From Candidatus Altimarinota bacterium (lineage in GTDB: Bacteria; Patescibacteriota; Gracilibacteria; UBA1369), in contig JBGSVP010000003.1 of assembly GCA_041752875.1 (NCBI GenBank), forward strand, positions 122,803 to 186,802: DNA of 64,000 nucleotides, in the 5' to 3' direction. Below are positions 7,135 through 40,753 of the stretch, piece by piece. The stretch's first letter is position 1, and every line of letters starts with the position of its first letter. The notes beneath the pieces were generated by a model. The model saw only the letters and a program-made list of their open reading frames with translations, did not search any database and had not been told where the DNA came from. The position numbers and the translations under genes are program-made.

Positions 7135-7203
7135 AAAAGCGAAGGAAAAGGAATACGAGCTACTGGACTTTGCAACAAAAACAAAAATCTTAATAAAAAC
7201 AAA

Positions 7204-7518
7204 ATGTTTAAATTGATTCCCCGGGAGGAAAATACGCAAAGATCATCGGTAAAATCGAAAGACAAAAAGATGAGGCCGGAGAAGAAAGACATTTCTCCAA
7301 AAATCCGCCAAAAGAAGGATATTGAAAAAAACGGGGTCAATAAGGTGTTGAAACGTATATCCTTACAGTTGGTGAAATTCGCATCTGATAATAAAGGATA
7401 TTCTTCGAGGCAAATCTCCGATATGGTCCATGACCTTCAACAGGGGATATGTTGTCTGGAGAAAAAACGCCAGCTGATGATTTGGACCGCCAAGAGAAAA
7501 AAGAAGGCCAAGTCATAA
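7204..7518 (+). CDS. Possible small Lys/Arg-rich hypothetical protein (104 aa)
   Basis: This is the only ORF in a 450-nt gap. It is highly basic and low-complexity with no recognisable motif, so the region may be non-coding. Confidence 0.3.
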   Translation: MFKLIPREENTQRSSVKSKDKKMRPEKKDISPKIRQKKDIEKNGVNKVLKRISLQLVKFASDNKGYSSRQISDMVHDLQQGICCLEKKRQLMIWTAKRKKKAKS

Positions 7519-12327: not shown

Positions 12328-12971
12328 GTAACATCTTCAGGTACTCCTGCGATTATGTTTATCCGGAAACATCTCTTCCTGGTCCCGGGAGAAGCTTCCG
12401 ATATGTCGAAATTAAGAAAATATGTCGAAGCGGCCAGCCCCGCATCAAAAGATGCATCCGCGAATATAGGGGAGAAAAGTATCGTCTTGGTGGTAACGGG
12501 GGTGGAATATATCATAATCGTCGGATCAAAAGAAAACCTTTCCAGAATGATGTCTTTGCCTGCTTCATAAGTTCCGATAACAGAAGAAACCGGGGCATCA
12601 TATTTACCTTCATTAGTGGAACCATGCAAATCCGCGAAAAGTATGACCTGGCTGGGATTGATTTTTGTCGGACTGGGGACGATATTGAAAAAAACTCCGA
12701 AATTTACTGGAGTCACAGCATCTATAATAGATCCATTTTTGTTGTAGTCGGTATAGTCGGTCATCGCCTTGCCCGTAACAGCGTAAGACCTTGCCAGACG
12801 CACAAGCGCCAGTGTACGTCCGTATGAATTTGTGAACATTAAAGATTTTGTTGAACTTATGGACGAATTGATTGTCGCGGCCATGAACATCACCATCAGA
12901 AACACCACTAATATTATTTCAATTAGAGTGAAGCCGCTTTTCGCATTTAATTCATTTTTTTGTTTTTGCAT
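12315..12971 (-). CDS. FimT/FimU/GspH-like type IV minor pilin
   Basis: AKSG|FTLIEIILVVFLMVMFMAAT is a canonical G/FTLIE prepilin cleavage and methylation motif. First gene of the operon. Confidence 0.8.
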   Translation of the reverse strand: MQKQKNELNAKSGFTLIEIILVVFLMVMFMAATINSSISSTKSLMFTNSYGRTLALVRLARSYAVTGKAMTDYTDYNKNGSIIDAVTPVNFGVFFNIVPSPTKINPSQVILFADLHGSTNEGKYDAPVSSVIGTYEAGKDIILERFSFDPTIMIYSTPVTTKTILFSPIFADASFDAGLAASTYFLNFDISEASPGTRKRCFRINIIAGVPEDVTCTP

Positions 12972-24943: not shown

Positions 24944-25020
24944 TGGAGCGGGTAAGGGGGCTCGAACCCCTGACCTCAACCTTGGCAAGGTTGCGCTCTA
25001 GCCAACTGAGCTACACCCGC
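24944..25020 (-). tRNA. tRNA-Gly (anticodon GCC), CCA encoded
   Basis: Hand-folded cloverleaf. Acceptor GCGGGTG/TACCCGC, D arm GCTC..GAGC, anticodon stem CAACC/GGTTG with loop TTGCCAA, T arm AGGGG-TTCGAGC-CCCCT, discriminator U, then CCA. 77 nt. Confidence 0.9.
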
Positions 25021-27371: not shown

Positions 27372-27404
27372 ATTCACCAGGTGAGTGGCATTCACCTGGT
27401 GAAT
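27372..27404. promoter_or_regulatory. Perfect 13-bp inverted repeat (hairpin) abutting the stop codon of the last gene of the minus-strand operon
   Basis: ATTCACCAGGTGA-gtggcat-TCACCTGGTGAAT. There is no U-tract on the minus strand, so it may be a factor-dependent terminator, an RNA-stability element or a protein-binding palindrome. Confidence 0.5.
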
Positions 27405-28508
27405 TTACCACACTCTGATTGACGGGCGGGATACGTAGTCTCTGGTTTCCGCGGCGGGATTCTGGTTTATGTAGAAAATGAAACAGTTGTTGATGGAGTC
27501 CCATCCGGCATAAGGTATAGATATCTTCCCGGAGAGATCAGTCCATTCTTCAGCGAAATCTTCCGCATTCCCTTTCCCATTGCCGGGAGTAACCGCGGTA
27601 TCGGACAGATGCTCGTTGCATAGCAGGGTACAATGGACTTTATCTATAATCATTTCTTCCGGTTCCTGGTCGGGGGCTGTTTTTGCGCGTTCATAAAGAC
27701 GGAGCGACATCTGTACCAGCATTGCGTATTCGTGGTCGGAAATCATGGCCATCCCCTGGGAAAGATATGAGTTTTTTATGAGAGCATAAAGTTCCGGCAG
27801 TTTCTTGTTTTTCTTCATCTTCGCCGGAATCGGAGGCATACAGGGACTGCCGTCCACGACGTAAACCTCGATGGATTCTTTTTTCGGTCCCCAGACGTCG
27901 CATCTGGGGTCGTGTGAGAATCCGGTTATTCCCTGTGAAAAATTCTGCCACTCGTATTTTGGGTTATGGTCAATCTTGTCCACCTTGGAAAAAAAGTTTC
28001 CCGGCGGTACCAAAAGGATAACCGGTTTATTGAAACGGTTTATACACGACAACATTTCCGGCCCGAGTTGCCGTATTTTCGTAAGAACAGGAATCATTAT
28101 GGGAATCTTTGTCTGGTATCCGTAATCTATCAGTGTGTCGACCATCAGTCCGTAGCTATTGGCGAGCTTTTGGAAAAGTTGCCGGCTTTCGGGAGGGACG
28201 GTGGATAAGAAATTGTCGATGTTTTGCGTCACGGGTTTTTTCTTGGGTGTTTTTACCGGCTTCGCTATGTGATTTTGAGCTCCCGGTTCAAAGAATTTGG
28301 CTTTTTGTGCCACATTCACCGCTAAGGCAATCGCTTCCACGATATTTTCGATCTTCTTCAGAGCGTATTCGTCGGTATCGATTTTTTCGACTATTTTCAT
28401 CAGTTTCTCTGCATGCGCATCCACGATGGCTTTGCACGGACCATATTCATATTCCTTGCTGTTCCTTATGTTTTCCAGGAAATCCCTTATGTGCTCTTTT
28501 GTAATCAT
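27405..28508 (-). CDS. Paralog 1 of uncharacterised family (367 aa)
   Basis: Shares the family blocks: N-terminal KEHIRDFLENIRNSKEYEYGPCKAIVD, FNKPVILLVPPGNFFSKVDKIDHN, VWGP...VYVVDGSPCMP, HEYAMLVQMSL and the C-terminal SRPSIRVW. Confidence 0.8.
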   Translation of the reverse strand: MITKEHIRDFLENIRNSKEYEYGPCKAIVDAHAEKLMKIVEKIDTDEYALKKIENIVEAIALAVNVAQKAKFFEPGAQNHIAKPVKTPKKKPVTQNIDNFLSTVPPESRQLFQKLANSYGLMVDTLIDYGYQTKIPIMIPVLTKIRQLGPEMLSCINRFNKPVILLVPPGNFFSKVDKIDHNPKYEWQNFSQGITGFSHDPRCDVWGPKKESIEVYVVDGSPCMPPIPAKMKKNKKLPELYALIKNSYLSQGMAMISDHEYAMLVQMSLRLYERAKTAPDQEPEEMIIDKVHCTLLCNEHLSDTAVTPGNGKGNAEDFAEEWTDLSGKISIPYAGWDSINNCFIFYINQNPAAETRDYVSRPSIRVW

Positions 28509-28526
28509 TTAGATAGATTGGATCGA

Positions 28527-29588
28527 CTATTTAAAAAATTCAGGATCAGTTTCCTCGATTGTCTGATACTCCAGGGAGTTTAAAACTAAATCGACAGCAG
28601 GCCGCACCCGTATGGCATTTTTCCCATCGGATACGTCGAGTGCCATAAATACCATTCTGCAATCCCCGTTATCCTTGTTCCTATGCCAAAAACCGAATAC
28701 GGGGCCTATTTCCTGCTGAACAGGCTTGTCGCGGTTCAAAGGAAGAAAAGTCTTTGGCCCGATAGTCCCGCTGACGTTTACGTCAATCGGATGTCCGTCT
28801 CTTATCGCCTTCATCGTCAACATCGCATATTCGTCTGGAGTCATCATCCGCAGACCTTTTCCCGCGAATTTGTTCTTTAGTATATCTATCTTCGAAATTC
28901 CAAGATCATTAGACACTCCGCACTGGTCCGGCGGCATAGATTCGGCTCCGTCCACGATACTGAAGTTGATTAGAAAACTGCTCTTCTGTTGCCAGTGTTT
29001 TGCCGCTACCTCTGTAAAAGAAGTGGACGACTGCTTAAACATTTTTTTGTTACCGTCCAGACGTTTGAACTTTTCCATCAGTTTTTCCGGCGGCGTAACT
29101 ATCACCTCCGGCTTCCCGAACCTGGATATTCGCCAGATGACTTCCGGATTAAGTTTCTTTATCGAAAAACGGATAGTACTCCAGGCAGGCATATTATTTG
29201 TATAATTGTTTGTATATCCGAATTCCTTAAGTGTTTCGATGGTGTGTTTATAACTCTCCTTCATGCTGGCCATCAACGCCTCCGTCTCTGCCGAATCGAG
29301 TGAAACGGCGGAAGCCTCTTCCCCCATCTTCGCGATGTTAGCCATGTCCGGCTCCGTCTTTTCCTGTACTTCTCTTATCCTTTCCCCAACAAATCCCAAT
29401 ATCCTTTCTATGGCTCTGATGACAGGTTTAGTATCCGTCGCCTCATCCGGCGCGAAGGTTAGATTTACCAGCTTCGAAAGAGCCTTACACATAGCTTCTC
29501 TCACTGCCGGACGCGCGTTTTTCAGTTCCTCGCTTTCGGATACGCTATGTGTGAAATCCTCGATGGATTGTTTAAAGGACTTGGTCAT
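28527..29588 (-). CDS. Paralog 2 of uncharacterised family (353 aa, most divergent member)
   Basis: FGKPEVIVTPPEKL, HWQQ...FSIVDGAESMP, DEYAMLTMKAI and the C-terminal IRVRPAVDLVL. It starts 9 nt downstream of the AAA+ gene. Confidence 0.8.
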   Translation of the reverse strand: MTKSFKQSIEDFTHSVSESEELKNARPAVREAMCKALSKLVNLTFAPDEATDTKPVIRAIERILGFVGERIREVQEKTEPDMANIAKMGEEASAVSLDSAETEALMASMKESYKHTIETLKEFGYTNNYTNNMPAWSTIRFSIKKLNPEVIWRISRFGKPEVIVTPPEKLMEKFKRLDGNKKMFKQSSTSFTEVAAKHWQQKSSFLINFSIVDGAESMPPDQCGVSNDLGISKIDILKNKFAGKGLRMMTPDEYAMLTMKAIRDGHPIDVNVSGTIGPKTFLPLNRDKPVQQEIGPVFGFWHRNKDNGDCRMVFMALDVSDGKNAIRVRPAVDLVLNSLEYQTIEETDPEFFK

Positions 29589-29597
29589 GAAAGTGTT

Positions 29598-31268
29598 CTA
29601 ATGGTTTTTAGGAGTCAGTCCGGCCGTTATCGAGGCCATCTTACTGATCAGCCCGGCATGGGCGGCGGAGATTTCAGGATTGGCTTCAGGCTTTGGCGGC
29701 AGAATCGTGGCCCCGCCTTTTGGAGTTGGTGCGCCTCCCTGGTCGGCATCATTAGCAGGTTCATCCGGTTCAGTATCATCGGCGACATGAGTCGTAGCTC
29801 CTGTCTGGGTGTCCGCGGGCGGATTGGGCGCTCCATTCTGCTCAAATACGGCAATCCCCGGCATCTCATCAGTCAGGTCGTTTATGGGAATTCCGCTCAA
29901 TACCTGGAAAATCCTACCCCTTATGTCCATCCTGATCTTTTTTTCTTTACTTTCGTCTTTTTCGTCAGCGACTTTTTCTTCCCAGAATTTTTGCTCCAGC
30001 AGATTCCTGATTCTCCACTTTACATATGTTCTCACAGGTACACGTTCGTTCTTCCTCTTGTATTCCTTCAGTTCCGGCGACAGCACGCTTGCAGGATGGT
30101 CCGGAAGTTTCATCTTCACCTCTTCACGGAACGCGTTCACATAATAGAACTCCAGCGCCAGGACAGCCGATTCCAGCATTTCATCCATTCGCGTCAAATA
30201 TGGTTTTACACCTTCCTTTTCAGCCTTTTTCACTTGCAGGATCATGAACTGGTCAAACGCCCTCTGGTTTATCTCGTTAAGAAAAACTTTCGGATCCTGA
30301 CGCAGGTCTTTCAGCACTTCGGCTTTCAGGACGGTATGCACCACCTCAAAAAAATCGGCCGCCGCATCGACTATCCTGTCGGGAATCTCCAGCAGTTCCG
30401 GCGGATAGAATCTGTGTGACCGAAGTTCCGTTCCGTTATTGACAGGTGATTCTTTTCTGTAACGGCCGGCCATCCTCTTCGAGTCGGTCCCCTGCGGAAG
30501 ACTCCCCAGCATATACGGACGCACGCGCCTTTCCTCGCGCTCGGTGGAGTCTTTGATTTCGCCCATAGACTGGCCTTCGCGATAGTTGCCGGTCGCGGCC
30601 AGAAACCACCCCGGATTTGCGGTTATGGTTGTCTCACGCCCCGGAAAATCTCCCAGATGCAACTCCGGAGCTTCGTTATACACGTTTGGATTATTCGGAC
30701 GCTCCGTCGGCTCAAGAATTACCTGCCTTTCTTCCGGCTCAAGATTGTTGATCTCATCCACATGCAACAGCCCGCCCGTCATCATGGACAAAGGCAGAGC
30801 CCCCAGCCTTCCTTTCCACGTGCCGTTGTCGCGCACATAGGCCCACAGGAACTTCTGTTGCACGTTCATACCTTTTTCGCACTGCACACGGAAATATGGG
30901 ATATTCAGCAGATATGCGAAAAACTTCAGCATACGCGATTTACCGAACCCCGGAGGCCCCAGAAACAAAGTATGGTGGCCGATGGCATAGCGCATCATCG
31001 CCGCCTGCAGAAACTCTATTTCGGCCGGACCGAAACTCAAGTCCGCGAACTGCTCCGCAGCGCCGTCGAAAACCGGAATCTTTTCTCCGTCTTCCTGCCC
31101 CGGAAACCGGTCGATCTCACCATCCCTGCGCCGTATCTTTACGCCAAGCACATTCGAATACTCCACAACGCGGTCAAGCTCCACATTAAATTCGCGTTCT
31201 ATCTTCACCGCTCCTCCGGCGAACTCCCGCACTATCTCCGTATCCCCGTTTTCCGATGGCTTAAACAT
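29598..31268 (-). CDS. AAA+ ATPase, AAA_5 / MoxR / CobS-like class, with low-complexity Pro/Ala/Thr/Asp-rich C-terminal tail
   Basis: Walker A LFLGPPGFGKSRM, Walker B GGLLHVDEINNL, and a sensor-1-like FLAATGN. The N-terminal extension before the P-loop resembles the CobS layout. The tail reads NGAPNPPADTQTGATTHVADDTEPDEPANDADQGGAPTPKGG. Confidence 0.8.
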   Translation of the reverse strand: MFKPSENGDTEIVREFAGGAVKIEREFNVELDRVVEYSNVLGVKIRRRDGEIDRFPGQEDGEKIPVFDGAAEQFADLSFGPAEIEFLQAAMMRYAIGHHTLFLGPPGFGKSRMLKFFAYLLNIPYFRVQCEKGMNVQQKFLWAYVRDNGTWKGRLGALPLSMMTGGLLHVDEINNLEPEERQVILEPTERPNNPNVYNEAPELHLGDFPGRETTITANPGWFLAATGNYREGQSMGEIKDSTEREERRVRPYMLGSLPQGTDSKRMAGRYRKESPVNNGTELRSHRFYPPELLEIPDRIVDAAADFFEVVHTVLKAEVLKDLRQDPKVFLNEINQRAFDQFMILQVKKAEKEGVKPYLTRMDEMLESAVLALEFYYVNAFREEVKMKLPDHPASVLSPELKEYKRKNERVPVRTYVKWRIRNLLEQKFWEEKVADEKDESKEKKIRMDIRGRIFQVLSGIPINDLTDEMPGIAVFEQNGAPNPPADTQTGATTHVADDTEPDEPANDADQGGAPTPKGGATILPPKPEANPEISAAHAGLISKMASITAGLTPKNH

Positions 31269-31297
31269 GTGTTTTAAAGTTAGAGTTATATTATTTA

Positions 31298-33751
31298 TTA
31301 TTCGATATGTATATCCAGTTCCCGCTCGATCTGTTCTTTGATGCGCTGTGAATAAGTGTCCGGAAAGCAGATCATCGTGCGCACCACCACATCCAGATAG
31401 CGGATAAGTCTCTCCGTGGATTTTTCTATCAGAAAATTGTTTTCCCCATAAGTCCGTGCCGGAGTGGCAATCTTGGAAGCCCCCGCGGTCTTAAGAACAA
31501 AACAGAAAGCCTTCCCATCAAGCGCCGATTGGGTCAGCCTGATCTCTTTCAACACAGCTTCCATGGCGTTTTTCGCACCCAGCTCTATCGCCATCTCATC
31601 CCATAGGTCGATCGCGAACTTACGCTTCGCGGAAGGATTATGCTTCAGTAGTCTGTCCCTTTGCGTCTTCAGCGCCGTAGCGTCCTGCACAATCGGGAAA
31701 TTGCCTCCCTGTTTGGCCGACTTGTTCAGCACCATCAGGTTATCCACAATCTTTTCGTAATCCGCCACCGGATCGTCGCCGAAACTCACCACCACCGGAA
31801 CCGGGGTTTTGCCGGAAGTTTTTTTGACATCGGGAATATCCTGCGAAAAAAGTATTTCCAGATCCAGATGTTGACGGATTTCCGCGTCGCTGTGGATCCT
31901 GCAAAGGAACAGGATAAGCTTAAGCGCCTCGCTGACCGGCATCGCCACCGTTCGCCACAAAACCGAAAGGTTTATCTTTTCGCGTTTTTCCACCTTCGTA
32001 TTCAGAAAAATCTTCCCGCTCTGCTCCAACCCCATTTCCTGACGTATCTCATCCATCACCAGTTCAGGGACATACAAGGTGTCCTGCGGCCGATCAGTCT
32101 TCTTCTTCGCTCCCTTGATTACGCTATGAATCGCTTCGCGCCAGGCAAATATCCTTTCCTGCATATCAAGATTCTCATCCAGCCAGGCTTCGGTCTCCTC
32201 CAACTCCCGCGGGGCCAGCTTAATCAGGTCTTCCACCGGCAGACTGTTTTGCGAAAACGGTTTGGGATTAGGCTTTTCATCTTTCTGCGGCATCGGCGGG
32301 GGATTGTCCTCCGATTCCTTATGCGAAGGCATGGTCGAAGGCACGGTATGCGGACGCAACTTCTCGTTAATCGCGTCCTCGATAACCTTCAGCGCCTTAT
32401 CCGGATCGCCGAGTAACATCTGCAGAATCTGGTTCAGCAGGTTTTGATTAATCTCTTCCTGCATCTCCTTAGACATCTCTTCAAAAAGTTTCTTCAGAAA
32501 ATCCCGCAGAGGGTCGGAAATTCCCTCCACCTTCACCGCCGGGCCCAGCAGGTCAAAATAGGTTTCCGGTTGTTTGGCCGTAGCTGTGCCTTCTCCTTCA
32601 GTAGGTTGTGAATCCGGCTCGTCCGACAAGCCTTCCTTAAACCCCGGAGCGCCCTCCAGAACCTCTTTCACCTTCTCCGCCTGTGCATCCGCTATCGTCT
32701 CCGGTGAAATATTGTTTTTTTCATAATCGGCCTTGTCCATCTGTTGAAAGGCGATATGGTACTGCAACTCGTAATTCAACTCCTCATCCATCGACGAAAG
32801 TTTTTGCTCCAATAGATCCTTAAGTTTTTGAGGAATCCCCGCGTATCCCGACCAGAACAGCCCGACTGCCGAAACAGCCTGATGGATAGCCTGATTCTCC
32901 CGGTCCCTGCTCACCAGCACTTTCTGATAATCCCCGGCATTAATCTTGCTTATCTCTCCATAAGCCTTCCGCGCCTTGGCCTTAACTTCAAGTTCATGCG
33001 GATTCCTTGCCGGAATACAAGCCTTGTCTTTCGCGATGAAAAGTATCTGTTCACGGTGAACTTCCAGAAGATTCTTCACTCGCGGATTGGTCAAAGGATG
33101 GATCTCCCCGAAAGCCCAAATCCGCATCGCTTCACTCTCGAACTGCGTAAAAAGAGGAGAGAATCCCGTCTTCAGAAGAATTTCCCGATCTCCGGAAATC
33201 CAGTCCTGCCTGCCGTCCGGTCCGAAATTAAAATCCACACAGTCCGTCATGTTCTCCTTAAGATCGGGATGATGAACCATAATCCTCTGGTCGTTACGGC
33301 AATCCAGCAGAGCGTTAGCCAAAGAACTGATTCCGACCATACCCCACTCCTCCTGCGAAATCCACAATTCCGAAGGCCGCCGGTCAATCACCAGATGCCC
33401 CGCCTCATGTGCCGCGTCCGCAATCAAAGAAGAAACCACCTTTTCTTTCAAAGATTTTACATCGATTTCCCCTTTGCCCGCCGCAAGCCCTCCCAAAATC
33501 TTCTTTTCCCATGTAGAAATCATCGCCTTAATCATCCCCAACCCTAAATGTATCTGTCTGGTACCTAAAGTAGCGAACATCTTTGTATCCGCAGTAAAGA
33601 CAACCTCGAATTTCCTATCCCCAAGAACCCCGACAATAGTATCAGTCATCTCCCCGGCCAAACTCTTAATATCCTCCGCAGAAAAATATTTACTAACCGC
33701 TTCAGCGGAGCATATTTTCTCCAAAACCGGATTGATATTCGGCACCTCCAT
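31298..33751 (-). CDS. Large partner protein: N-terminal HExxH (putative metallopeptidase-like) region, acidic/Pro-rich linker, C-terminal VWA-like alpha/beta region (CobT- or DUF2201-like architecture)
   Basis: AAHEAGHLVIDRRP lies at about residue 165 from the chosen start. The central linker reads SDEPDSQPTEGEG...ESEDNPPPMPQKDEKPNPKP. The C-terminal ~250 aa alternate beta and alpha segments with no clear DxSxS MIDAS motif. I moved the start to the ATG at 33751 (MEVPNINP). The track ORF adds 59 codons that would overlap the divergent gene and its promoter. Confidence 0.7.
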   Translation of the reverse strand: MEVPNINPVLEKICSAEAVSKYFSAEDIKSLAGEMTDTIVGVLGDRKFEVVFTADTKMFATLGTRQIHLGLGMIKAMISTWEKKILGGLAAGKGEIDVKSLKEKVVSSLIADAAHEAGHLVIDRRPSELWISQEEWGMVGISSLANALLDCRNDQRIMVHHPDLKENMTDCVDFNFGPDGRQDWISGDREILLKTGFSPLFTQFESEAMRIWAFGEIHPLTNPRVKNLLEVHREQILFIAKDKACIPARNPHELEVKAKARKAYGEISKINAGDYQKVLVSRDRENQAIHQAVSAVGLFWSGYAGIPQKLKDLLEQKLSSMDEELNYELQYHIAFQQMDKADYEKNNISPETIADAQAEKVKEVLEGAPGFKEGLSDEPDSQPTEGEGTATAKQPETYFDLLGPAVKVEGISDPLRDFLKKLFEEMSKEMQEEINQNLLNQILQMLLGDPDKALKVIEDAINEKLRPHTVPSTMPSHKESEDNPPPMPQKDEKPNPKPFSQNSLPVEDLIKLAPRELEETEAWLDENLDMQERIFAWREAIHSVIKGAKKKTDRPQDTLYVPELVMDEIRQEMGLEQSGKIFLNTKVEKREKINLSVLWRTVAMPVSEALKLILFLCRIHSDAEIRQHLDLEILFSQDIPDVKKTSGKTPVPVVVSFGDDPVADYEKIVDNLMVLNKSAKQGGNFPIVQDATALKTQRDRLLKHNPSAKRKFAIDLWDEMAIELGAKNAMEAVLKEIRLTQSALDGKAFCFVLKTAGASKIATPARTYGENNFLIEKSTERLIRYLDVVVRTMICFPDTYSQRIKEQIERELDIHIE

Positions 33752-33832
33752 CGTACGTTTTACATTAAGGTTGACTTGATAGCAAAATATAGCTAAATTT
33801 TCAAGCCTAAAATCCAAAAAAGATAAATTCTT
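33752..33832. promoter_or_regulatory. 81-bp divergent promoter region between the two arms of the locus
   Basis: Plus strand: TTGACT (33771-33776), a 17-nt spacer, then TAAATT (33794-33799). Minus strand: TTGAAA, a 17-nt spacer, then TATCAA, overlapping the plus-strand elements. Both leaders are short and lack a Shine-Dalgarno sequence. Confidence 0.45.
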
Positions 33833-35023
33833 ATGCCAAAAGAAACCCCGGAACCAAAGATCACACAACAGGATGTGGAAACCTTCATAGCACAGGTAAA
33901 AAACAGCAAAGAATACGACGATCCGCAATGCCGTGAGGTCATCGATGAAGTCTCGACAATTATCGGCTATTTATTTCTCGGCCCGGATATCACAGAACAC
34001 CCTGTCTATCTGGAAATTTTAGATAAACAAATCACAGCCATCGCCGCGGCAATCCAAAAAGCGCAGTACTGTTCTAAAATCGCAACCGGCGAACTCGCGC
34101 CGGAGGTCGAAGAACTGATAGGAACCTTGTCTGCCGACTACCTGAAAGCGACAGAAAACCTTGCATGGTACGGAATCCTGGAATCCGCAGAAGACGGCAA
34201 AAGATTCTACACCGCCGACTACGACGGCAGTGCCGAGCCTGATGGAAAAGGGGAAAACTTCACCGGTGAAAAGATACCAATGCCGGAATTTTCGGAAGTC
34301 ATAGGCTGGCTTACCCCCGCCAATGCCGCGCTATACCGGGAATATAAGGAAAAAGGATTGGAACCGCGGCTTCAGATGACACCACTGGCGCTTAAGCTAA
34401 GGACTTTGGCGGAAAAACTTGATGCAAAAAAGGAAGAGATCAACACCCGTGCCGGCAGTGAGCTAATCAAAAAAGACACTTTCATCTGGGATAAAAAAAT
34501 GGAAACAGGAGAAATCGATGAAAGCCAGTTGTGCTATGAACCGGAGCAGTTGGAAGCATCGGAAGACGGGAAAAGTCTGACGGTCGGAAACGGATTGACC
34601 AAGTCTGAATTGATTAACAAGTACAACGGCTGGCTGGTGCAGATAGTACCGATGAAACAGGATTTGGACGCCGATCCGGATAAGATCAGCAAAGAAATAA
34701 CGGAAGGTGGAAAAGTCAAAAAAATAGAATTATCCAATGCCGAAAAGTCAGCACTATACATGAAAGAAGCCCGCGGGCGCGGAGAATCCGGCATGGGCTA
34801 TGAGGATGATTTGATTGCACAAATGAACTCCCTAGCCGGAGATTCTCCAAAACCACTGGAAAAAGATTATTGGACTATTTTACCGGAATCGACCTTTACA
34901 AAAATAGAAATTATTGCCGTTGGCCGCTGGGACGGTGTTCGGGTCAACTTGACCATGCGCAATTCCAGCAATCAGAACTACAGTCTTCGCTGTCGTCGTT
35001 CGGCGAGGGTTTTAAGAGCTTGA
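33833..35023 (+). CDS. Paralog 3 of uncharacterised family (396 aa, long subtype; mosaic)
   Basis: The N-terminal ~78 aa are nearly identical to paralog 5, and the rest is nearly identical to paralog 4. C-terminus LRCRRSARVLRA. Confidence 0.85.
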   Translation: MPKETPEPKITQQDVETFIAQVKNSKEYDDPQCREVIDEVSTIIGYLFLGPDITEHPVYLEILDKQITAIAAAIQKAQYCSKIATGELAPEVEELIGTLSADYLKATENLAWYGILESAEDGKRFYTADYDGSAEPDGKGENFTGEKIPMPEFSEVIGWLTPANAALYREYKEKGLEPRLQMTPLALKLRTLAEKLDAKKEEINTRAGSELIKKDTFIWDKKMETGEIDESQLCYEPEQLEASEDGKSLTVGNGLTKSELINKYNGWLVQIVPMKQDLDADPDKISKEITEGGKVKKIELSNAEKSALYMKEARGRGESGMGYEDDLIAQMNSLAGDSPKPLEKDYWTILPESTFTKIEIIAVGRWDGVRVNLTMRNSSNQNYSLRCRRSARVLRA

Positions 35024-35035
35024 TCTTTGATTGTT
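34074..35035 (+). repeat. Direct repeat copy A (~0.96 kb) of the paralog 3/4 body
   Basis: Aligns by eye with 36668-37626 at a constant offset of about 2.59 kb. There is one 3-nt indel and scattered substitutions, and the last ~120 nt are more diverged. Confidence 0.85.
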
Positions 35036-35145
35036 GATCCTTTCATTGATTATTAATCTTTGATTTTCTCACTAAACACCAGTTTGGCAAAAAGGTTTTC
35101 AGTCGCTCGCATGCTCGGCGGATGGTTGAAAAGCCTGCCATGATT

Positions 35146-36267
35146 TTATGTGATAAAATCCAAATAATTCTCCCGGTTAATCACTTCATAACTACTTCCC
35201 GGATAATTATCAGTCCAGTCCTTGGGGGCTTTCACCTGTTCATTTCTCCACTTGAATTCATAGCCGAAAAGCTTTCCGTCTCTTTCTTCAATCAAATCAA
35301 TCTCTTTTTGGCTGTAGGTCCTCCAGAAATAGGAATTTGCACTGTGTTTTAGATACTCATTCCTTTTTAAGCGTTCGATTAGCATGAAGTTCTCAAAAAG
35401 TTGACCCTGGTCGTTGCGTTCGTCGAATTTATTGAAATTCGCAATTAAGGCATTGCGAACACCTAAATCATAAAAGAAATACTTCGACATCTTGCTGACT
35501 TCATTGCGTAAGTTTCTTGAGAATCCGGATAAAGGGAAAATCACAAAAGATTTTTGCAGCAAATCCAGATAATATAGTGTCGTTTTGACATCAATACCCA
35601 GTTGCCTGCCTAATTCATGGGCGGAAACCTGTGAGCCGATTTGGAAAGCCAGTAGTTTCAATAACTTTATTATGACATCTGATCGCTTAATACGATCAAA
35701 TTCCAATATATCCTTGATTAGATAGGAGTTGGAGATATTTTCGATAATATCGCGTTTTTCTACATTTAACGCGGAAGTGATAACTTCAGGGTAGGAACCG
35801 TAAATCAGATATTCTTCCAGTTTTGTTTTTAATTCGGATTTAGCCATCTTTGATGATAATTCCAGCTGTGAAATCGGAAACAGTTTGATAACTTTTTTTC
35901 TGCCTGTTAAAGATTCATCCGTTTGATTTGCCAACTCAAATGCCGAAGACCCGGTTGCGATAAAAATCCTGTCCGGATGCCGGTCGGCCATAAGCTTCAA
36001 GGCATTACCGATATTGGGAATCTTCTGGGCTTCATCAATTATTATCATTTGATAATTCCCGACATGATTATCGGTCGAATCATAAGTGCAGGCGGAAATA
36101 TTCCTGGCAAGTTCAAGATTATCTCCCGTATCAAAACGATAGCTAAGTTTGGTGCCTTCAAGAAAATTCTTGATTAATGTGGTTTTGCCAACTTGTCTTG
36201 GTCCATAAATAATCAATACTTTACCCGCTCTGATTATATCGTTCAAATCGTAGATTCTTTTTAACAT
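35146..36267 (-). CDS. AAA_14 / DUF4143-type ATP-binding protein
   Basis: Contains VLIIYGPRQVGKTTL (Walker A) and MIIIDEAQK (Walker B). The C-terminal region is typical of DUF4143 proteins (YFWRT...EIDLI). It is on the opposite strand to its neighbours and sits between the two repeat copies. Confidence 0.8.
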   Translation of the reverse strand: MLKRIYDLNDIIRAGKVLIIYGPRQVGKTTLIKNFLEGTKLSYRFDTGDNLELARNISACTYDSTDNHVGNYQMIIIDEAQKIPNIGNALKLMADRHPDRIFIATGSSAFELANQTDESLTGRKKVIKLFPISQLELSSKMAKSELKTKLEEYLIYGSYPEVITSALNVEKRDIIENISNSYLIKDILEFDRIKRSDVIIKLLKLLAFQIGSQVSAHELGRQLGIDVKTTLYYLDLLQKSFVIFPLSGFSRNLRNEVSKMSKYFFYDLGVRNALIANFNKFDERNDQGQLFENFMLIERLKRNEYLKHSANSYFWRTYSQKEIDLIEERDGKLFGYEFKWRNEQVKAPKDWTDNYPGSSYEVINRENYLDFIT

Positions 36268-36287
36268 TGGAATCAGATTAATTACCT

Positions 36288-36366
36288 ATAATATAGCCCA
36301 ACTCCACATATTTAGTCAAATTTGTGGAGTTGAAATCCATGAATTTAGTGGAAATTGTGGAGTTGA
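36288..36366. promoter_or_regulatory. Promoter of the DUF4143 ATPase gene overlapped by three copies of the motif AACTCCACA(A)
   Basis: On the minus strand: TTGACT (36319-36314), an 18-nt spacer, then TATATT (36295-36290). TGTGGAGTTGA occurs at 36323-36333 and 36356-36366 (33-nt spacing), with the inverted copy AACTCCACA at 36300-36308. Confidence 0.45.
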
Positions 36367-36377
36367 TGATGGTTGCA

Positions 36378-36406
36378 TTGACAAAAAGGGAAATATTTCA
36401 CATATT
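36378..36406 (+). promoter_or_regulatory. Sigma70-like promoter for paralogs 4-7
   Basis: TTGACA (36378-36383), a 17-nt spacer, then CATATT (36401-36406). The ATG at 36427 gives a leader of about 14 nt with no Shine-Dalgarno sequence. Confidence 0.45.
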
Positions 36407-36426
36407 AGCCCCCTATATTTTTCCCC

Positions 36427-37614
36427 ATGCCCAAAGCCCCCCCGGAACAGAAACTAACAAAACAGGACGTCGAAAACTTCCTCCGCCAAGTGGAAGACAG
36501 CAGAGAGTACGAAGATCCGCAGTGCAGGGAGACAATCGATAAGATTTCCCAGCAGATCAAATCATATATTTCCTCACAGGGAGACCTGGAAAACACAATA
36601 GGCCTATCGCTGATCGGGAAAAAGATAGATGAAATCGCCACGGCAATCCTCAAAGCAAAGTACGGTCCTAAAATCGCAACCGGCGAACTTGCGCCGGATG
36701 TCGTAGAGCTGATAGGAACCTTGTCTGCCGACTACCTGAAAGCGACAGAAAACCTTGCATGGTACGGAATCCTGGAATCCGCGGAAGACGGCAAAAGATT
36801 CTACACCGCCGACTACGACGGCAGTTCCGAGCTTGATGGAAAAGGGGAAAACTTCACCGGCAAAAAGATAACCATACCGGAATTTTCGGAGGTCATCGGC
36901 TGGCTGACCCCCGCCAATGCCGCCCTATACCGTGAATACAAGGAAAAAGGATTGGAACCGCGGCTTCAGCTCACTCCGCTCGCCCTTAAGCTAAGGACTT
37001 TGGCTGGAAAACTTGATGCAAAAAAGGCAGAGATAAATGCCCGTGCCGGCAGTGAGCTAATCAAAAAAGACACTTTCATCTGGGATAAAAAGGAAACAGG
37101 AGAAATCGATGAAAGCCAGTTGTGCTATGAACCGGAGCAGTTTGAAGCATCGGAAGACGGGAAAAGCCTGACGGTCGGAAACGGATTGACCAAGTCTGAA
37201 TTGATTAACAAGTACAACGGCTGGCTGGTGCAGATAGTACCGATGAAACAGGATTTGGACGCCGATCCGGATAAGATCAGCAAAGAAATAACGAAAGATG
37301 GCAAGGCCAAAAAAATAGAATTAATCAATGCGGAAAAGTCAGCACTATACATGAAAGAAGCCCGCGGGCGCGGAGAATCCGGCATGGGCTATGAGGATGA
37401 TTTGATTGCACAAATGAACTCCCTAGCCGGAGCCCCTCCCAAACCACTGGAAAAAGATTATTGGACTATTTTACCGGAATCGACCTTTACAAAAAAAGAA
37501 ATTGTTGCCGGTGGTTTCTGGTGCGATGATCGGGTCGACTTGGGCGGGGGCGGTTCCAGCAGTCAGTTCCGCAATCTTCGCTGTCGTCGTTCGGTTCGGC
37601 TTTTAAGACCTTGA
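36427..37614 (+). CDS. Paralog 4 of uncharacterised family (395 aa, long subtype)
   Basis: MPKAPPEQKLTKQDVENFLRQVEDSREYEDPQCRETIDKIS. The body is nearly identical to paralog 3. C-terminus LRCRRSVRLLRP. Confidence 0.85.
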   Translation: MPKAPPEQKLTKQDVENFLRQVEDSREYEDPQCRETIDKISQQIKSYISSQGDLENTIGLSLIGKKIDEIATAILKAKYGPKIATGELAPDVVELIGTLSADYLKATENLAWYGILESAEDGKRFYTADYDGSSELDGKGENFTGKKITIPEFSEVIGWLTPANAALYREYKEKGLEPRLQLTPLALKLRTLAGKLDAKKAEINARAGSELIKKDTFIWDKKETGEIDESQLCYEPEQFEASEDGKSLTVGNGLTKSELINKYNGWLVQIVPMKQDLDADPDKISKEITKDGKAKKIELINAEKSALYMKEARGRGESGMGYEDDLIAQMNSLAGAPPKPLEKDYWTILPESTFTKKEIVAGGFWCDDRVDLGGGGSSSQFRNLRCRRSVRLLRP

Positions 37615-37626
37615 TCTTTAATTCTT
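36668..37626 (+). repeat. Direct repeat copy B of the paralog 3/4 body
   Basis: See copy A (34074-35035). Confidence 0.85.
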
Positions 37627-37650
37627 GAATATTTTTTTGATACCTACCCC

Positions 37651-38550
37651 ATGCCAAAAGAAACCCCGGAACAACAACTCACAAAACAGGATGTGGAAAC
37701 CTTCATAGCACAGGTAAAAAACAGCACAGAATACGAAGATTTAGAATGCCGTGCGGTTATAGATGAAATCTCGACGCATATCCATAACTTACTTGTCGGA
37801 CCGGACATCATAGAACACCCGGTCTGTCTGGAAATTTTAGATAAAAAAATCAACGCCATCGCCGCGGCAATCCAAAAAGCGCACGAAAAAATGAACCAGC
37901 CCGAATTACCAGAACTGCTTTCACAAAGCTACGACGAAATGGCCGAAGTCCTTAAATATTTTGGTTTCGGCCATCCATTTATACTTAAAACATGGGTAAT
38001 GGAAGCTGTAAAGGCACTTCCTCTACATATGGTGGAAACGGTAAGGAAATTCGAAAAGCCGACCATAATCATCAGCCCGGCATGCGGCTTTGGAGCGAAA
38101 ATAGGAACCATAAAAACAAGTTATCCGCATTGCATCAACTGCTCCCCATCCCATGACCATGAACTTTGGGGTCAGAATCCGACTAAAAAGATAGTAAGCA
38201 TCGTAGACGGGATTGAATCCATGCCAGGCCTTGCCTACATCAAAAACAATATGACGATCGACTCAAAAATAGACAGATACAAAGAGGAATATAGAAAACA
38301 TCATCTGGAAATGATGGACATAAACGAGGCCGCAATGCTGGTGATGAAATCCCTGAAGACAGGAGAATACATAGACGATTCCTCACTCAACGGCACCGAA
38401 ACGTACTATAGTATGCATGGCTCCAACTTCACGCCCAATGTCCACTGGGAATCCGTTAACCAGAACTTCGATTTCAATACATACCACTTTTACGGAGCCA
38501 TGAGCCACAAAGTCCGCTGCCGCCCCTCGTTGAAACTATTGGAATATTAA
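37651..38550 (+). CDS. Paralog 5 of uncharacterised family (299 aa)
   Basis: MPKETPEQQLTKQDVETFIAQVKNSTEYEDLECRAVIDEIS, FEKPTIIISP, LWGQ...VSIVDGIESMP, AAMLVMKSL and the C-terminal VRCRPSLKLLEY. Confidence 0.85.
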   Translation: MPKETPEQQLTKQDVETFIAQVKNSTEYEDLECRAVIDEISTHIHNLLVGPDIIEHPVCLEILDKKINAIAAAIQKAHEKMNQPELPELLSQSYDEMAEVLKYFGFGHPFILKTWVMEAVKALPLHMVETVRKFEKPTIIISPACGFGAKIGTIKTSYPHCINCSPSHDHELWGQNPTKKIVSIVDGIESMPGLAYIKNNMTIDSKIDRYKEEYRKHHLEMMDINEAAMLVMKSLKTGEYIDDSSLNGTETYYSMHGSNFTPNVHWESVNQNFDFNTYHFYGAMSHKVRCRPSLKLLEY

Positions 38551-38556
38551 ACACCC

Positions 38557-39531
38557 ATGCCAGAAAAAATCACAAAACAGGACCTGGAAAACTTCCTGGA
38601 TCAGGTAAAAAACAGCGAAGAGTACGAAAATCCGGAATTCGCCAAGGTTATCGATGATTTCGCAATTGAAATCAGAAGTCATCTGATAATCCAGGGCGTT
38701 CTGGATAGTAATCATCAATTGGATAACTTTGTAATCAAAAAGATCGACCGGGTGATAGACGCCATCGGCACGGCAATAACTATCGCGGCTGCCGACCATA
38801 AAGAATTCCCTTTTCTAAACGATGAAAAACTGAAAGAAATGGTCATGGGCTACCCCGAATCCATCATCACCGCCAAAGAAATAGACCCGAAAGCGGAAAT
38901 CAAACCGGTAAAAGAAGTCCTGGCGAGAATCAAAAACCTTGGCCCCGACATTCTTCGGGAAATCGCCAAATTCCAAAGACCGACACTGCTCGTAACCCCC
39001 AAAAACAGCTTCCTGGAAAAGAAAGAGAACATGGATCACCATAAGAGATATGTGGACGAAAAAGGAAAAGGCCAGGCGGATACATGGCATATGGAAAAAG
39101 AAGACAGCCCATATTTAGAGGTCAGCACCTCGGATTCAACATTGATCAGCATTGTAGAAGGGGCGGCAAGATTGAAACATCGACCCGATATTATTCCGTG
39201 CGAGTCCCAACTTGAAGAGAGAAAAAAGGCATTTATAAATCATTACATAGAGAAAAAAATTCTTTTGATCAGTGTCCACGAGTACGCGGTACTGATGCAA
39301 CGTTCACTCAGGGAATACAGACGGCACGGAAATGATAAAGGCAAAATCCTGGATTATTTCGAAAATGAAAAAGACACAGTCACATGTCTGGGCGACAGAC
39401 ATTTGAAAAAAACGACCAGAATCCCCGTCGCTTTCTTCGCCGCACGCAAAGTATCCTTCTCCGCCTACGGCCCGGATTTCACCATCGATAACTTCTGCGC
39501 CCGTCCTTCGCACCCTTTAATGTTATATTAA
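38557..39531 (+). CDS. Paralog 6 of uncharacterised family (324 aa)
   Basis: MPEKITKQDLENFLDQVKNSEEYENPEFAKVID, FQRPTLLVTPKNSF, ISIVEGAARL, HEYAVLMQRSL and the C-terminal CARPSHPLMLY. Confidence 0.85.
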   Translation: MPEKITKQDLENFLDQVKNSEEYENPEFAKVIDDFAIEIRSHLIIQGVLDSNHQLDNFVIKKIDRVIDAIGTAITIAAADHKEFPFLNDEKLKEMVMGYPESIITAKEIDPKAEIKPVKEVLARIKNLGPDILREIAKFQRPTLLVTPKNSFLEKKENMDHHKRYVDEKGKGQADTWHMEKEDSPYLEVSTSDSTLISIVEGAARLKHRPDIIPCESQLEERKKAFINHYIEKKILLISVHEYAVLMQRSLREYRRHGNDKGKILDYFENEKDTVTCLGDRHLKKTTRIPVAFFAARKVSFSAYGPDFTIDNFCARPSHPLMLY

Positions 39532-39539
39532 ACTGCCCC

Positions 39540-40451
39540 ATGCCCGAACAACTCACAAAACAGGACCTGGAAAACTTCCTGAAACAGGTAAATGAAAGCG
39601 AAGAATCCGACGACACCGAATGCAGGGAAGTCATAGACAAAGCGGCATCAAAAATCAGAGCGTGCATCCTATTTTTGGCAGACACCATAGAAGATAAGAC
39701 CGTAATCCATGAAATCGAAGGCTACATAGACGCCATCGCCGACGCGGTTAAAAAAGCCCAAGAAAAGCTGAATCCGCCTAAATTGATTGAAAGTCTTTCG
39801 AAAAGTTTCGACGAGATGGCCGATTCATACGAAGACTTCGGCTTCGGCAAGCTCGACCCTGAAATAAAAATCTGGACGATGGCTAATATACAATATCTTA
39901 GTGCCACCAAATTGGAAACAATAAACAGCTTCGGAAAACCGACCATCATAATCACCCCCCCGGGAAGTTTTAAGTCAAAAGTAGACGCCATAGACCACAA
40001 CAAGCAGATAGAACATCAATGCTGGACCTACTGTGATCCTTCCCCAAGCGATCCATTATGGGGTGGCGAACAGACCTGGTTGGAAGTCAGCGTTGTAGAT
40101 GGCATTGAAGCAATGCCGGAACCGACCTTTATAAAGGATAATTTTACTGTCGGCGATAGAATGAAAATATACGAAAATGAATTTAAAAAACAAAAGTTAA
40201 ACCTAATGGGATTACATGCAGGCGCGATGTTAATGATGAAATCGCTAAAAAATGGCATGCCGGTTGATGATCTACTTAAAGCCAATACAGCGACATATTA
40301 TAAGACAAAAGGATTAACATATTTTAGTAGAATACCATCCATATTATGGCACTCAAAGAATAGTCATGTAACTTTCAGCATGCAATCTGCAAAGACCTAC
40401 GGCTGCTCCCATCTACGTTGCAGACCATCATTGACGCTACTTAGCCATTAA
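39540..40451 (+). CDS. Paralog 7 of uncharacterised family (303 aa)
   Basis: MPEQLTKQDLENFLKQVNESEESDDTECREVIDK, FGKPTIIITPPGSFKSKVDAIDHN, LWGG...VSVVDGIEAMP, GAMLMMKSL and the C-terminal LRCRPSLTLLSH. Confidence 0.85.
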   Translation: MPEQLTKQDLENFLKQVNESEESDDTECREVIDKAASKIRACILFLADTIEDKTVIHEIEGYIDAIADAVKKAQEKLNPPKLIESLSKSFDEMADSYEDFGFGKLDPEIKIWTMANIQYLSATKLETINSFGKPTIIITPPGSFKSKVDAIDHNKQIEHQCWTYCDPSPSDPLWGGEQTWLEVSVVDGIEAMPEPTFIKDNFTVGDRMKIYENEFKKQKLNLMGLHAGAMLMMKSLKNGMPVDDLLKANTATYYKTKGLTYFSRIPSILWHSKNSHVTFSMQSAKTYGCSHLRCRPSLTLLSH

Positions 40452-40545
40452 TCACTCACTGGCCCCCCCGTAAGCCGCCAGCGCAACGGCCCGCCAAGCC
40501 ACCAGCGCAGCGCCGTGGCGCCCCCCACCCCCCCATCGCCATAGA

Positions 40546-40674
40546 TCCAAAAGTGTCAAATTTCTTATTTTAGCCCGTCGGCAAGCAAAAAAAACAGGAG
40601 CCGTACGAGTGGTACGGTGAGTGTTTTTTTATGCGCAGTCCGGCGCGCTAAAATAAAAATTTCACACTTTTGGA
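40546..40674. repeat. 129-bp unit with ~28-bp terminal inverted repeats enclosing the terminator
   Basis: The left arm TCCAAAAGTGTCAAATTTCTTATTTTAGC (40546-40574) matches the reverse complement of 40647-40674 with one mismatch and one indel. The unit ends 4 nt from the 3' end of tRNA-Phe. Confidence 0.6.
40601..40630. terminator. Bidirectional intrinsic-type terminator shared by the paralog operon (+) and tRNA-Phe (-)
   Basis: CCGTAC-gagtg-GTACGG with TTTTTTT downstream (40624-40630) and AAAAAAAA upstream (40591-40598). Both U-tracts sit 6 nt from the stem, so efficiency is uncertain. Confidence 0.5.
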
Positions 40675-40678
40675 CTTT

Positions 40679-40753
40679 TGGTGCCAGGGGGCAGGATCGA
40701 ACTGCCGACGCAAGGATTTTCAGTCCTTCGCTCTACCACTGAGCTACCCCGGC
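40679..40753 (-). tRNA. tRNA-Phe (anticodon GAA), CCA encoded
   Basis: Hand-folded cloverleaf. Acceptor GCCGGGG/CCCTGGC with one G-U pair, D arm GCTC-AGTGGTA-GAGC, anticodon stem AAGGA/TCCTT with loop CTGAAAA, T arm GGCAG-TTCGATC-CTGCC, discriminator A, then CCA. 75 nt. Confidence 0.9.

Follow-up and report, generated by a model that had tools for sequence, protein, structure and literature searches.

A seven-member protein family related to retroelement-diversified proteins beside a MoxR-class ATPase and a VWA-fold partner in a Candidatus Altimarinota bacterium

What do seven paralogous proteins outside every characterised family do beside an AAA+ ATPase and an 817-aa partner on the chromosome of a bacterium that belongs to the candidate phyla radiation (CPR)? 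The question is raised by a locus at positions 27372-40674 of a 64,000-nucleotide stretch of Candidatus Altimarinota bacterium DNA (assembly GCA_041752875.1, contig JBGSVP010000003.1, positions 122,803 to 186,802), hereafter called the window. A sequence-only reading had described this locus and proposed that the paralogs, here named P1 to P7, serve the ATPase and its partner as clients, effectors or diversified sensors. The locus with its seven paralogs, ATPase and 817-aa partner is real and its coordinates were recovered in the list of open reading frames (ORFs). Among the three proposed roles, that of diversified sensors fits best because relatives of the paralogs are targets of diversity-generating retroelements (DGRs) and P3 and P4 carry an adenine-related footprint. 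The MoxR-class ATPase, the partner with its von Willebrand factor A (VWA) fold and HExxH motif, and the seven paralogs, acting as hypervariable sensors or adaptors, probably constitute a three-part cytoplasmic system of a CPR chromosome.

The paralogs themselves form a clearly bounded group. A hidden Markov model (HMM) of the family matches exactly seven stop-to-stop ORFs in the window, with E-values between 1e-45 and 1e-88. Sequence and profile searches of Pfam, NCBIfam, PHROG, PADLOC and PDB gave no match for any of them, and a word-indexed comparison with 5.8 billion proteins retrieved none besides those of the window itself. Each paralog is composed of a helical N-terminal module of about 80 residues (the N-module), a helical linker and an alpha/beta domain, the last approximately 40 residues of which are variable and end in LRxRPSxxL. 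Neither a transmembrane helix nor a signal peptide is evident in the paralogs: their N-termini are polar, and the Kyte-Doolittle value stays below 1.6 over every run of 19 residues. Hydrophobic stretches and signal-like N-termini are absent from all proteins of the locus. The absence of such elements from the paralogs, their shared sequence blocks, which reappeared in the alignments, and their position outside characterised families, to which Foldseek added no match, had all been stated before and held up.

Conservation is unevenly distributed over these parts. Among P3-P7 the N-module is 38-71% identical and the remainder 16-40%, the P3/P4 pair excepted. The N-module of P3 is 71% identical to that of P5 and 48% to that of P4, and its remainder is 88% identical to P4 and 16% to P5 (regions 33833-34080 compared with 37651-37900 and 36427-36680). 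Since one part of P3 is nearest to P5 and the other to P4, the paralogs are mosaic and their modules have been recombined. P3 and P4 make up a separate subfamily with large inserts.

A structural view of the family is provided by an AlphaFold2 model of P7, built with 60 homologs, which reached a predicted local distance difference test score (pLDDT) of 94.3 and a predicted template modelling score of 0.82. In the model, helices make up the N-terminal half (residues 1-130) and an alpha/beta domain follows at the C-terminus; the last three strands of this domain correspond to the variable region (VR) described below. A Foldseek comparison with PDB and BFVD found nothing at E<0.1. Human C-type lectins appeared at E~1-3 with a target-normalised TM score of ~0.4; Mtd, TvpA and AvpA were not among the top 50 matches, and none of 60 family members has a Lectin_C or FGE-sulfatase match in Pfam. 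[quoted passage not shown]

The connection to DGRs comes from relatives in which the complete arrangement is preserved. At locus L008, which lies within a contig of 288 kb, the 3'-terminal 116 nt of a gene that fuses an AAA_5 ATPase to a paralog-type domain match a non-coding copy, the template repeat (TR), located 330 nt downstream, and 20 of the 25 mismatches fall on TR adenines. Another such fusion at L009 differs from its TR at 21 positions, 18 of them TR adenines, and genes for Avd and for a reverse transcriptase of the RVT_1 type (3e-8) come directly after the VR/TR. L014 (GCA_014729275.1) encodes a stand-alone protein of the P3/P4 subfamily, then a TR that differs from the VR at 26 positions, 22 of them adenines, and also RVT_1 and bAvd. 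These three are textbook VR/TR pairs. A further fusion, P0022, adjoins bAvd and RVT_1. The VR covers the last ~40 codons of the domain and encodes the C-terminal signature of the family, ending in LRxRPSVxV. The window paralogs closest to DGR targets are P6, P3/P4 and P1: P6 shares a subfamily with the VR-bearing C-terminal domain of the L008 fusion (34% identity, E=2e-43), and P1 is closest to the C-terminal domains of the AAA_5 fusions P0022 (37% identity) and L007. Two details of these loci were recorded on the side. The L009 fusion gene contains an in-frame TAA (12614-12616) ~85 nt upstream of the VR; this target might be a pseudogene or else a variant in the population despite the adjoining TR, Avd and reverse transcriptase. 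At L008 the TR is followed by an AbiEi/AbiEii toxin-antitoxin pair (13227-14524).

Past adenine-directed mutagenesis has left its footprint in the window, namely in P3 and P4. The central ~840 nt of the two genes are close to identical. Over the 44 codons of the tail, differences at codon positions 1, 2 and 3 number 13, 14 and 2, which places 27 of the 29 differing sites at positions 1 or 2, and the affected codons are nonsynonymous in 19 cases and synonymous in 2. The corresponding differences are 31, 23 and 41 in the N-terminal 80 codons (42 nonsynonymous and 13 synonymous codons) and 9, 8 and 29 in the middle 271 codons (19 and 23). In Fisher tests the tail departs from the N-terminal region with p=2.5e-4 and from the middle with p=8e-7. 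The template of L014, translated as LVSNGNWNNNHVNLNYNNANNQNNNLRCRRSVKV, can be aligned without gaps over 102 nt to P3 (IIAVGRWDGVRVNLTMRNSSNQNYSLRCRRSARV) and P4 (IVAGGFWCDDRVDLGGGGSSSQFRNLRCRRSVRL). Although this template is heterologous, its adenines are found at 21 of 27 sites that vary between P3 and P4, compared to 12 of 75 constant sites (p=1.3e-8). Judged from these alignments, the two tails look like VRs written from one AAY-rich template.

A possible trace of the retroelement itself lies nearby. An Avd-like fragment begins 34 nt past the stop codon of P3 and resembles the C-terminus of the L009 and L014 Avd proteins. With an HMM made from two CPR bAvd proteins it scored E=0.007, the best of 1768 window fragments, and tblastn gave E-values of 0.011-0.04. 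This fragment may be the relic of a lost DGR cassette. Such a cassette may have stood next to P3, where a gene with AAA_14 and DUF4143 domains now lies, or an active element may be located elsewhere in the genome. A TR was found in the window neither by pattern search nor by sensitive blastn of all seven 3' ends.

How the family is tied to AAA_5/VWA pairs became apparent from its wider distribution. An exhaustive HMM search retrieved 290 representatives at E<=1e-3, 154 of them at E<=1e-10. Among the 34 members longer than 400 aa, AAA_5 occurs in 8 and DUF4256 in 6. Two orthologs of the window ATPase bear a paralog-type domain at their C-terminus, namely P0028 (744 aa, 51% identity) and the ATPase of L001 (649 aa, 41%), and a second AAA_5 lineage carries a C-terminal paralog domain as well (P0022, P0024, P0037 and loci L007-L009). 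P0021 appears by eye to join a transglutaminase-type Cys-His-Asp protein to a paralog domain, a reading not confirmed with Pfam. Gene order points in the same direction: in Ca. Abawacabacteria RBG_16_42_10 (L004) the genes follow each other as 817-aa homolog, paralog, small gene and ATPase. Fusions and conserved gene order together substantiate the association of the paralogs with ATPase/VWA pairs that had been suspected from their adjacency.

The fusions share one further property. In all of them the family match begins at profile position ~79-85, and the N-module, that is the first ~80 residues, is absent. Because it is missing from the fusions and is the best-conserved part of P3-P7, the N-module can be understood as a putative docking element that replaces covalent linkage. 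In L003 (116-2500) a 794-aa protein, P0009, contains three tandem paralog domains, only the first of which is preceded by an N-module. DUF4256 occurs as a fusion partner, behind the paralog domain in some proteins and attached to the orthologous AAA_5 ATPase in others (P0015, P0017 and a 682-aa ATPase on the JGI contig of P0005). It is absent from the window, a text search of the literature found no paper on it, and it may serve as an alternative output or sensor domain.

A small gene of 114-153 aa without a Pfam match was noticed in the ortholog loci (L001 3005-3349, L002 2751-3203, L004 9510-9971). In every one of them it stands just upstream of the ATPase gene and after the gene of the VWA partner (after the paralog in L004), and it is also present on two further contigs. 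The window lacks it and has a gap of 29 nt at this place. A PP2C-like motif read by eye in a 1311-aa protein of L001 was dropped, as Pfam gave no confirmation.

The 556-aa ATPase of the window is of the MoxR class, as had been proposed, because Pfam AAA_5 matches it with 33.2 bits against a cut-off of 22 (E 6e-8) and the closest sequences in PDB are CbbQ and NorQ (5c3c, 6l1q, 9qh4). Its Walker A (GPPGFGKS) and Walker B (LLHVDE, within LLHVDEIN) motifs are intact. The protein ends in a low-complexity tail, at the place where its orthologs have a paralog-type domain or DUF4256.

The 817-aa protein has five orthologs with 37-56% identity, each adjoining an AAA_5 gene, and a second homolog search with a profile of this family brought no additional members. 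Profiles from Pfam, NCBIfam and PDB do not match it. The AlphaFold2 model has a pLDDT of 59 overall; residues 590-817 reach 60-88 and form alternating strands and helices. Foldseek matched this C-terminal part best to the VWA domain of NorD in NorQD complexes (9qhe_G, E=2.6e-4, probability 1.00; also 9qh6_G), with further matches to Ssl1/p44, complement C2a and TEM8/CMG2. According to the model, then, the C-terminus has a VWA fold, and Pfam VWA matches no member of the family. The metal ion-dependent adhesion site (MIDAS; DxSxS ... T ... D) is absent from the family, in which an invariant L-S-V-L-W-R-T follows the first strand in six of six members.

At the other end of the protein, the motif HE(A/G)GH is invariant in all six members and embedded in DAAHE(A/G)GHxVI. 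In the model HEAGH sits in a predicted helix (98-121) that comes after three strands, and an invariant DCRNDxRIM block follows ~30 residues past the motif. No peptidase match for the family was found in Pfam or PDB, the best being DUF4344 with E=0.14 in one member. The N-terminal region seems zincin-like, and its assignment as a putative metallopeptidase derives only from the motif. The earlier description of an HExxH/VWA-like partner is therefore upheld for the fold and for the conserved HExxH, while the MIDAS expected of a VWA protein is missing.

A related arrangement helps to place this protein. Upstream of the L008 and L009 fusion genes, the partners of the sister system consist of Transglut_core and a VWA domain with a complete MIDAS (D-L-S-G-S). 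An hhalign comparison of the 817-aa family with the transglutaminase-VWA family gave no similarity (probability 0.2). Since the sister system has Transglut_core and VWA in the same position, two unrelated peptidase-type folds fill one slot, and a peptidase-type domain joined to VWA is the constant of both subtypes. At L008 a HAMP+SpoIIE (PP2C-type) phosphatase gene (5869-7443) was seen directly upstream of the transglutaminase-VWA gene.

From these elements a working scheme can be drawn. The N-module would dock each paralog on the ATPase/VWA machine, and in the fused relatives its place would be taken by covalent attachment to the AAA_5 ATPase or the VWA partner. The ligand bound by the variable domain would probably be a protein, either an invader's or the host cell's, and ATP-driven remodelling by the MoxR hexamer would couple its binding to the peptidase-type domain carried by the VWA partner, a domain that might act as effector or processing enzyme. 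Seven paralogs would provide seven specificities and could be interchangeable as sensors or adaptors. Coupling of this kind would follow the logic put forward for MoxR-vWA systems with DGR-diversified sensors (PMC7159879, PMC10907252). A bolder version, in which the VR-bearing domain is a third DGR scaffold, neither C-type lectin nor immunoglobulin, and the locus a programmable protein-targeting machine with swappable, retroelement-diversified adaptors sharing the N-module dock, is speculative and rather unlikely. If true, it would amount to a system of adaptive recognition at the protein level in a symbiotic bacterium of ultra-small size.

Several observations weigh against sensors or adaptors that feed an ATPase-driven peptidase and are diversified by a retroelement. 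The 817-aa protein was modelled with low confidence (pLDDT 59) and has no match to a peptidase family, and the variable domain has no significant C-type lectin or other fold match despite a pLDDT of 94. Some family members have no ATPase within 5-10 kb (L014, L015). The mutational footprint is found in P3 and P4 only, the other five paralogs having no close copy for comparison. Searches by phmmer, tblastn and pattern found no reverse transcriptase, complete avd or TR in the 64-kb window, and the predicted template had no match when JGI metagenomes were scanned for its exact pattern; for these reasons ongoing diversification in this genome is unproven. Finally, the verified DGR cassettes adjoin the subtype with transglutaminase-VWA and AAA_5 fusion or a stand-alone protein, and none adjoins the zincin-VWA subtype.

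The main rival explanation is that the MoxR/VWA pair acts as a chaperone of the hypervariable proteins, folding or assembling them, buffering destabilising VR mutations or loading them into complexes, so that no signal is transduced. It draws strength from CbbQ/O and NorQ/D, characterised MoxR/VWA pairs that are remodelling chaperones and the best matches for both window proteins, and the fusion of variable domain and ATPase suits it equally well as it suits sensors. What it leaves unexplained is why the VWA partner always has a peptidase-type domain, be it HExxH or transglutaminase, and why stand-alone paralogs possess a conserved N-module of docking type. A fused client would moreover be an unusual arrangement for a chaperone, and this explanation is considered unlikely. 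The divergence of the tails could also be accounted for without any DGR action at the locus, by ordinary diversifying selection on the tails and recent gene conversion of the middle only, in a family that is merely related to DGR targets. The absence of reverse transcriptase and TR from the window is in line with this, as is the divergence of P3 and P4 in their first 80 codons, and recombination has clearly acted on the mosaic paralogs. Selection of this type is nevertheless hard to reconcile with the codon positions affected in the tail, as opposed to the N-terminal region where 41 of 95 differences fall on position 3, with the coincidence of variable sites and adenines of an independent, verified template, and with the Avd-like relic past P3, all of which make it quite improbable.

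Chance adjacency would mean that the paralogs are self-sufficient variable ligand binders, for example in host attachment, that happen to lie beside an unrelated MoxR/VWA pair. The stand-alone members without a nearby ATPase would be expected under it, and the region appears plastic, with its DUF4143 gene, mosaic paralogs and flanking tRNA genes. Fusions that arose repeatedly and independently, with two AAA_5 lineages as well as with a transglutaminase-type protein, speak against a fortuitous neighbourhood, and so does the paralog inside the orthologous operon of another genus-level lineage. A function in surface attachment is unlikely because signal peptides and transmembrane helices are absent from all of the proteins. 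Mere adjacency is hence regarded as highly improbable, and a system of sensors or adaptors with ATPase and VWA partner is the reading retained.

How does such a system relate to known ones? NorQ/NorD and CbbQ/CbbO use the MIDAS to grip one dedicated client, NO reductase or Rubisco. They provide the best sequence matches of the ATPase and the best fold matches of the VWA domain, and as in the window their two genes are adjacent; in contrast to them, the window pair lacks the MIDAS, its partner has an HExxH region and the associated proteins form a diversified multigene family. Predicted metallopeptidases with a VWA-like domain (Pfam DUF2201_N/DUF2201) are also encoded beside MoxR ATPases. They resemble the 817-aa protein in the succession of an HExxH region and a VWA-like domain and in the adjoining AAA_5 gene, and differ from it in length, the window protein being twice as long. 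An assignment of the 817-aa family to DUF2201_N/DUF2201 is not supported, as Pfam scans of all six members brought no match to these profiles even at E<=10.

MoxR-vWA systems with DGR-diversified sensor domains have been described (PMC7159879, PMC10907252), from cyanobacteria and proteobacteria (PMC7159879). These VMAP/MoxR-vWA ternary conflict systems with DGR-diversified FGS (C-type lectin) domains (Kaur et al., 2020, PMC7159879; Dore et al., 2024, PMC10907252) have in common with the locus a MoxR-type ATPase, a vWA protein, a hypervariable ligand-binding domain of DGR type and a peptidase-type domain, all of them cytoplasmic. Unlike them, the window has no VMAP protein and no FGE-sulfatase or CLec match in Pfam, and Pfam scans of all ten locus proteins detected no VMAP or effector-associated domain. 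The variable domain is carried by separate proteins (in the window) or by the ATPase instead of the vWA protein, the vWA protein of the window type bears a peptidase-type domain and no MIDAS, and the host is a CPR bacterium rather than a multicellular cyanobacterium or a proteobacterium.

Also close are the DGR targets fused to AAA ATPases, reported to be the commonest target architecture in CPR (PMC10907252, citing Paul 2017). The variable domain is the same, the domains of the VR/TR-bearing AAA_5 fusions of L008 and L009 being homologous to P6 and to P3/P4 of the window, and both occur in CPR hosts with the VR at the extreme C-terminus. The window departs from them in that the variable domain is unfused and distributed over seven proteins with their own N-module, that the ATPase ends in a low-complexity tail and that no reverse transcriptase or TR lies within 64 kb. 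A CPR class of VRs with unknown fold has also been reported on Midasin-type AAA proteins (Wu et al., 2018, PMC5758913); this UVR4/Midasin-AAA class is probably another close known kind and may be the same VR class. Given the AAA-fused CPR targets (PMC10907252) and the MoxR-vWA-DGR systems (PMC7159879), the earlier suggestion of a new kind of multi-component system cannot be maintained. New here are the unfused seven-copy form with its shared, putative docking module, the VWA partner that lacks the MIDAS and bears HExxH, the absence of VMAP, the CPR host and a VR-domain fold that could not be placed.

DGR targets in CPR genomes are numerous and mostly lack a recognisable domain or a proposed function. 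The locus ties one family of such targets, via fusion and gene order, to a defined MoxR ATPase and a VWA partner with a peptidase-type domain. Its unfused seven-copy form with a separable candidate docking module offers a testable sensor-motor-peptidase architecture for hypervariable proteins within the cell. The MoxR-vWA-DGR theme, known in multicellular bacteria, would be extended to organisms with genomes of ~0.5 Mb. In addition, a high-confidence predicted model of a VR-bearing domain is supplied that current fold searches leave unplaced.

Table 1. Positions of the locus features and flanking tRNA genes, numbered from the first letter of the window.
Feature	Position	Strand	Location or basis
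tRNA-Gly	24944-25020		two unrelated genes between it and the locus
Inverted repeat, perfect 13 bp, 7-nt loop	27372-27384 / 27392-27404		immediately past the P1 stop, where the minus-strand operon ends; read from sequence and inverted self-match
Paralog P1, 367 aa	27405-28508	-	ORF list, alignment, family HMM
Paralog P2, 353 aa	28527-29588	-	ORF list, alignment, family HMM E=6e-69
MoxR-class AAA+ ATPase, 556 aa	29598-31268	-	Pfam AAA_5, best PDB matches CbbQ/NorQ
817-aa partner: HExxH region, long helical/disordered middle, C-terminal VWA fold (predicted)	31298-33751	-	orthologs, AlphaFold2 model
Predicted VWA-fold domain of the 817-aa protein, residues ~590-817	31298-31984	-	Foldseek
HEAGH codons of the 817-aa protein, residues 115-119	33395-33409	-	family alignments
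Divergent intergenic region, 81 nt	33752-33832		between the 817-aa gene and P3
Paralog P3, 396 aa	33833-35023	+	ORF list
VR-like segment of P3, codons 358-396, ending LRCRRS	34904-35020	+	
Possible avd relic, last ~27 codons, ..RMLGGWLKSLP*	35057-35140	+	bAvd HMM; suggestive only
AAA_14+DUF4143 ATPase, 373 aa	35146-36267	-	between P3 and P4; Pfam 1e-36 and 2e-25
Paralog P4, 395 aa	36427-37614	+	ORF list, family HMM
VR-like segment of P4, codons 357-395	37495-37611	+	
Paralog P5, 299 aa	37651-38550	+	ORF list, alignment, family HMM
Paralog P6, 324 aa	38557-39531	+	ORF list, family HMM
Paralog P7, 303 aa, the member modelled with AlphaFold2	39540-40451	+	ORF list, model
Terminator-like hairpin	40600-40618		after the plus arm; matched on both strands
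tRNA-Phe	40679-40753		just past the terminator-like hairpin

The features of the locus are collected in Table 1. On the minus strand the genes follow in the order 817-aa protein, ATPase, P2 and P1 with gaps of 29, 9 and 18 nt, and these gaps, the inverted repeat and the length of the divergent region agree with what had been reported. A promoter search of the intergenic region returned weak matches only, no more than in shuffled sequence. The plus arm does encode P3-P7 and has its terminator-like hairpin beside tRNA-Phe, as described before, but the minus-strand AAA_14+DUF4143 gene between P3 and P4 had been overlooked and the plus arm is therefore not one transcription unit. The tRNA-Gly named as one border of the locus is separated from it by two unrelated genes.

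The AAA_14+DUF4143 protein matches the PADLOC candidate PDC-S01 with 1e-141 and is the sole PADLOC match at the locus; the paralogs, the ATPase and the 817-aa protein have none. DUF4143 genes also adjoin family members in L015 (11272-11943) and on the JGI contig of P0022. This recurrence may reflect a variable or defence-island setting or a real link, and the gene is at best a candidate part of the system. The locus is surrounded by genes for LeuRS, PNPase, pseudopilins, Lon and RelA/SpoT. A prophage or integrative island was considered and rejected in view of these housekeeping neighbours, the lack of an integrase or phage gene and a GC content like that of the flanks outside 30-34 kb. Between 30001 and 34000, a segment that holds the ATPase and 817-aa genes, the GC content is 0.48-0.51, compared to 0.43-0.47 in the paralogs and flanks.

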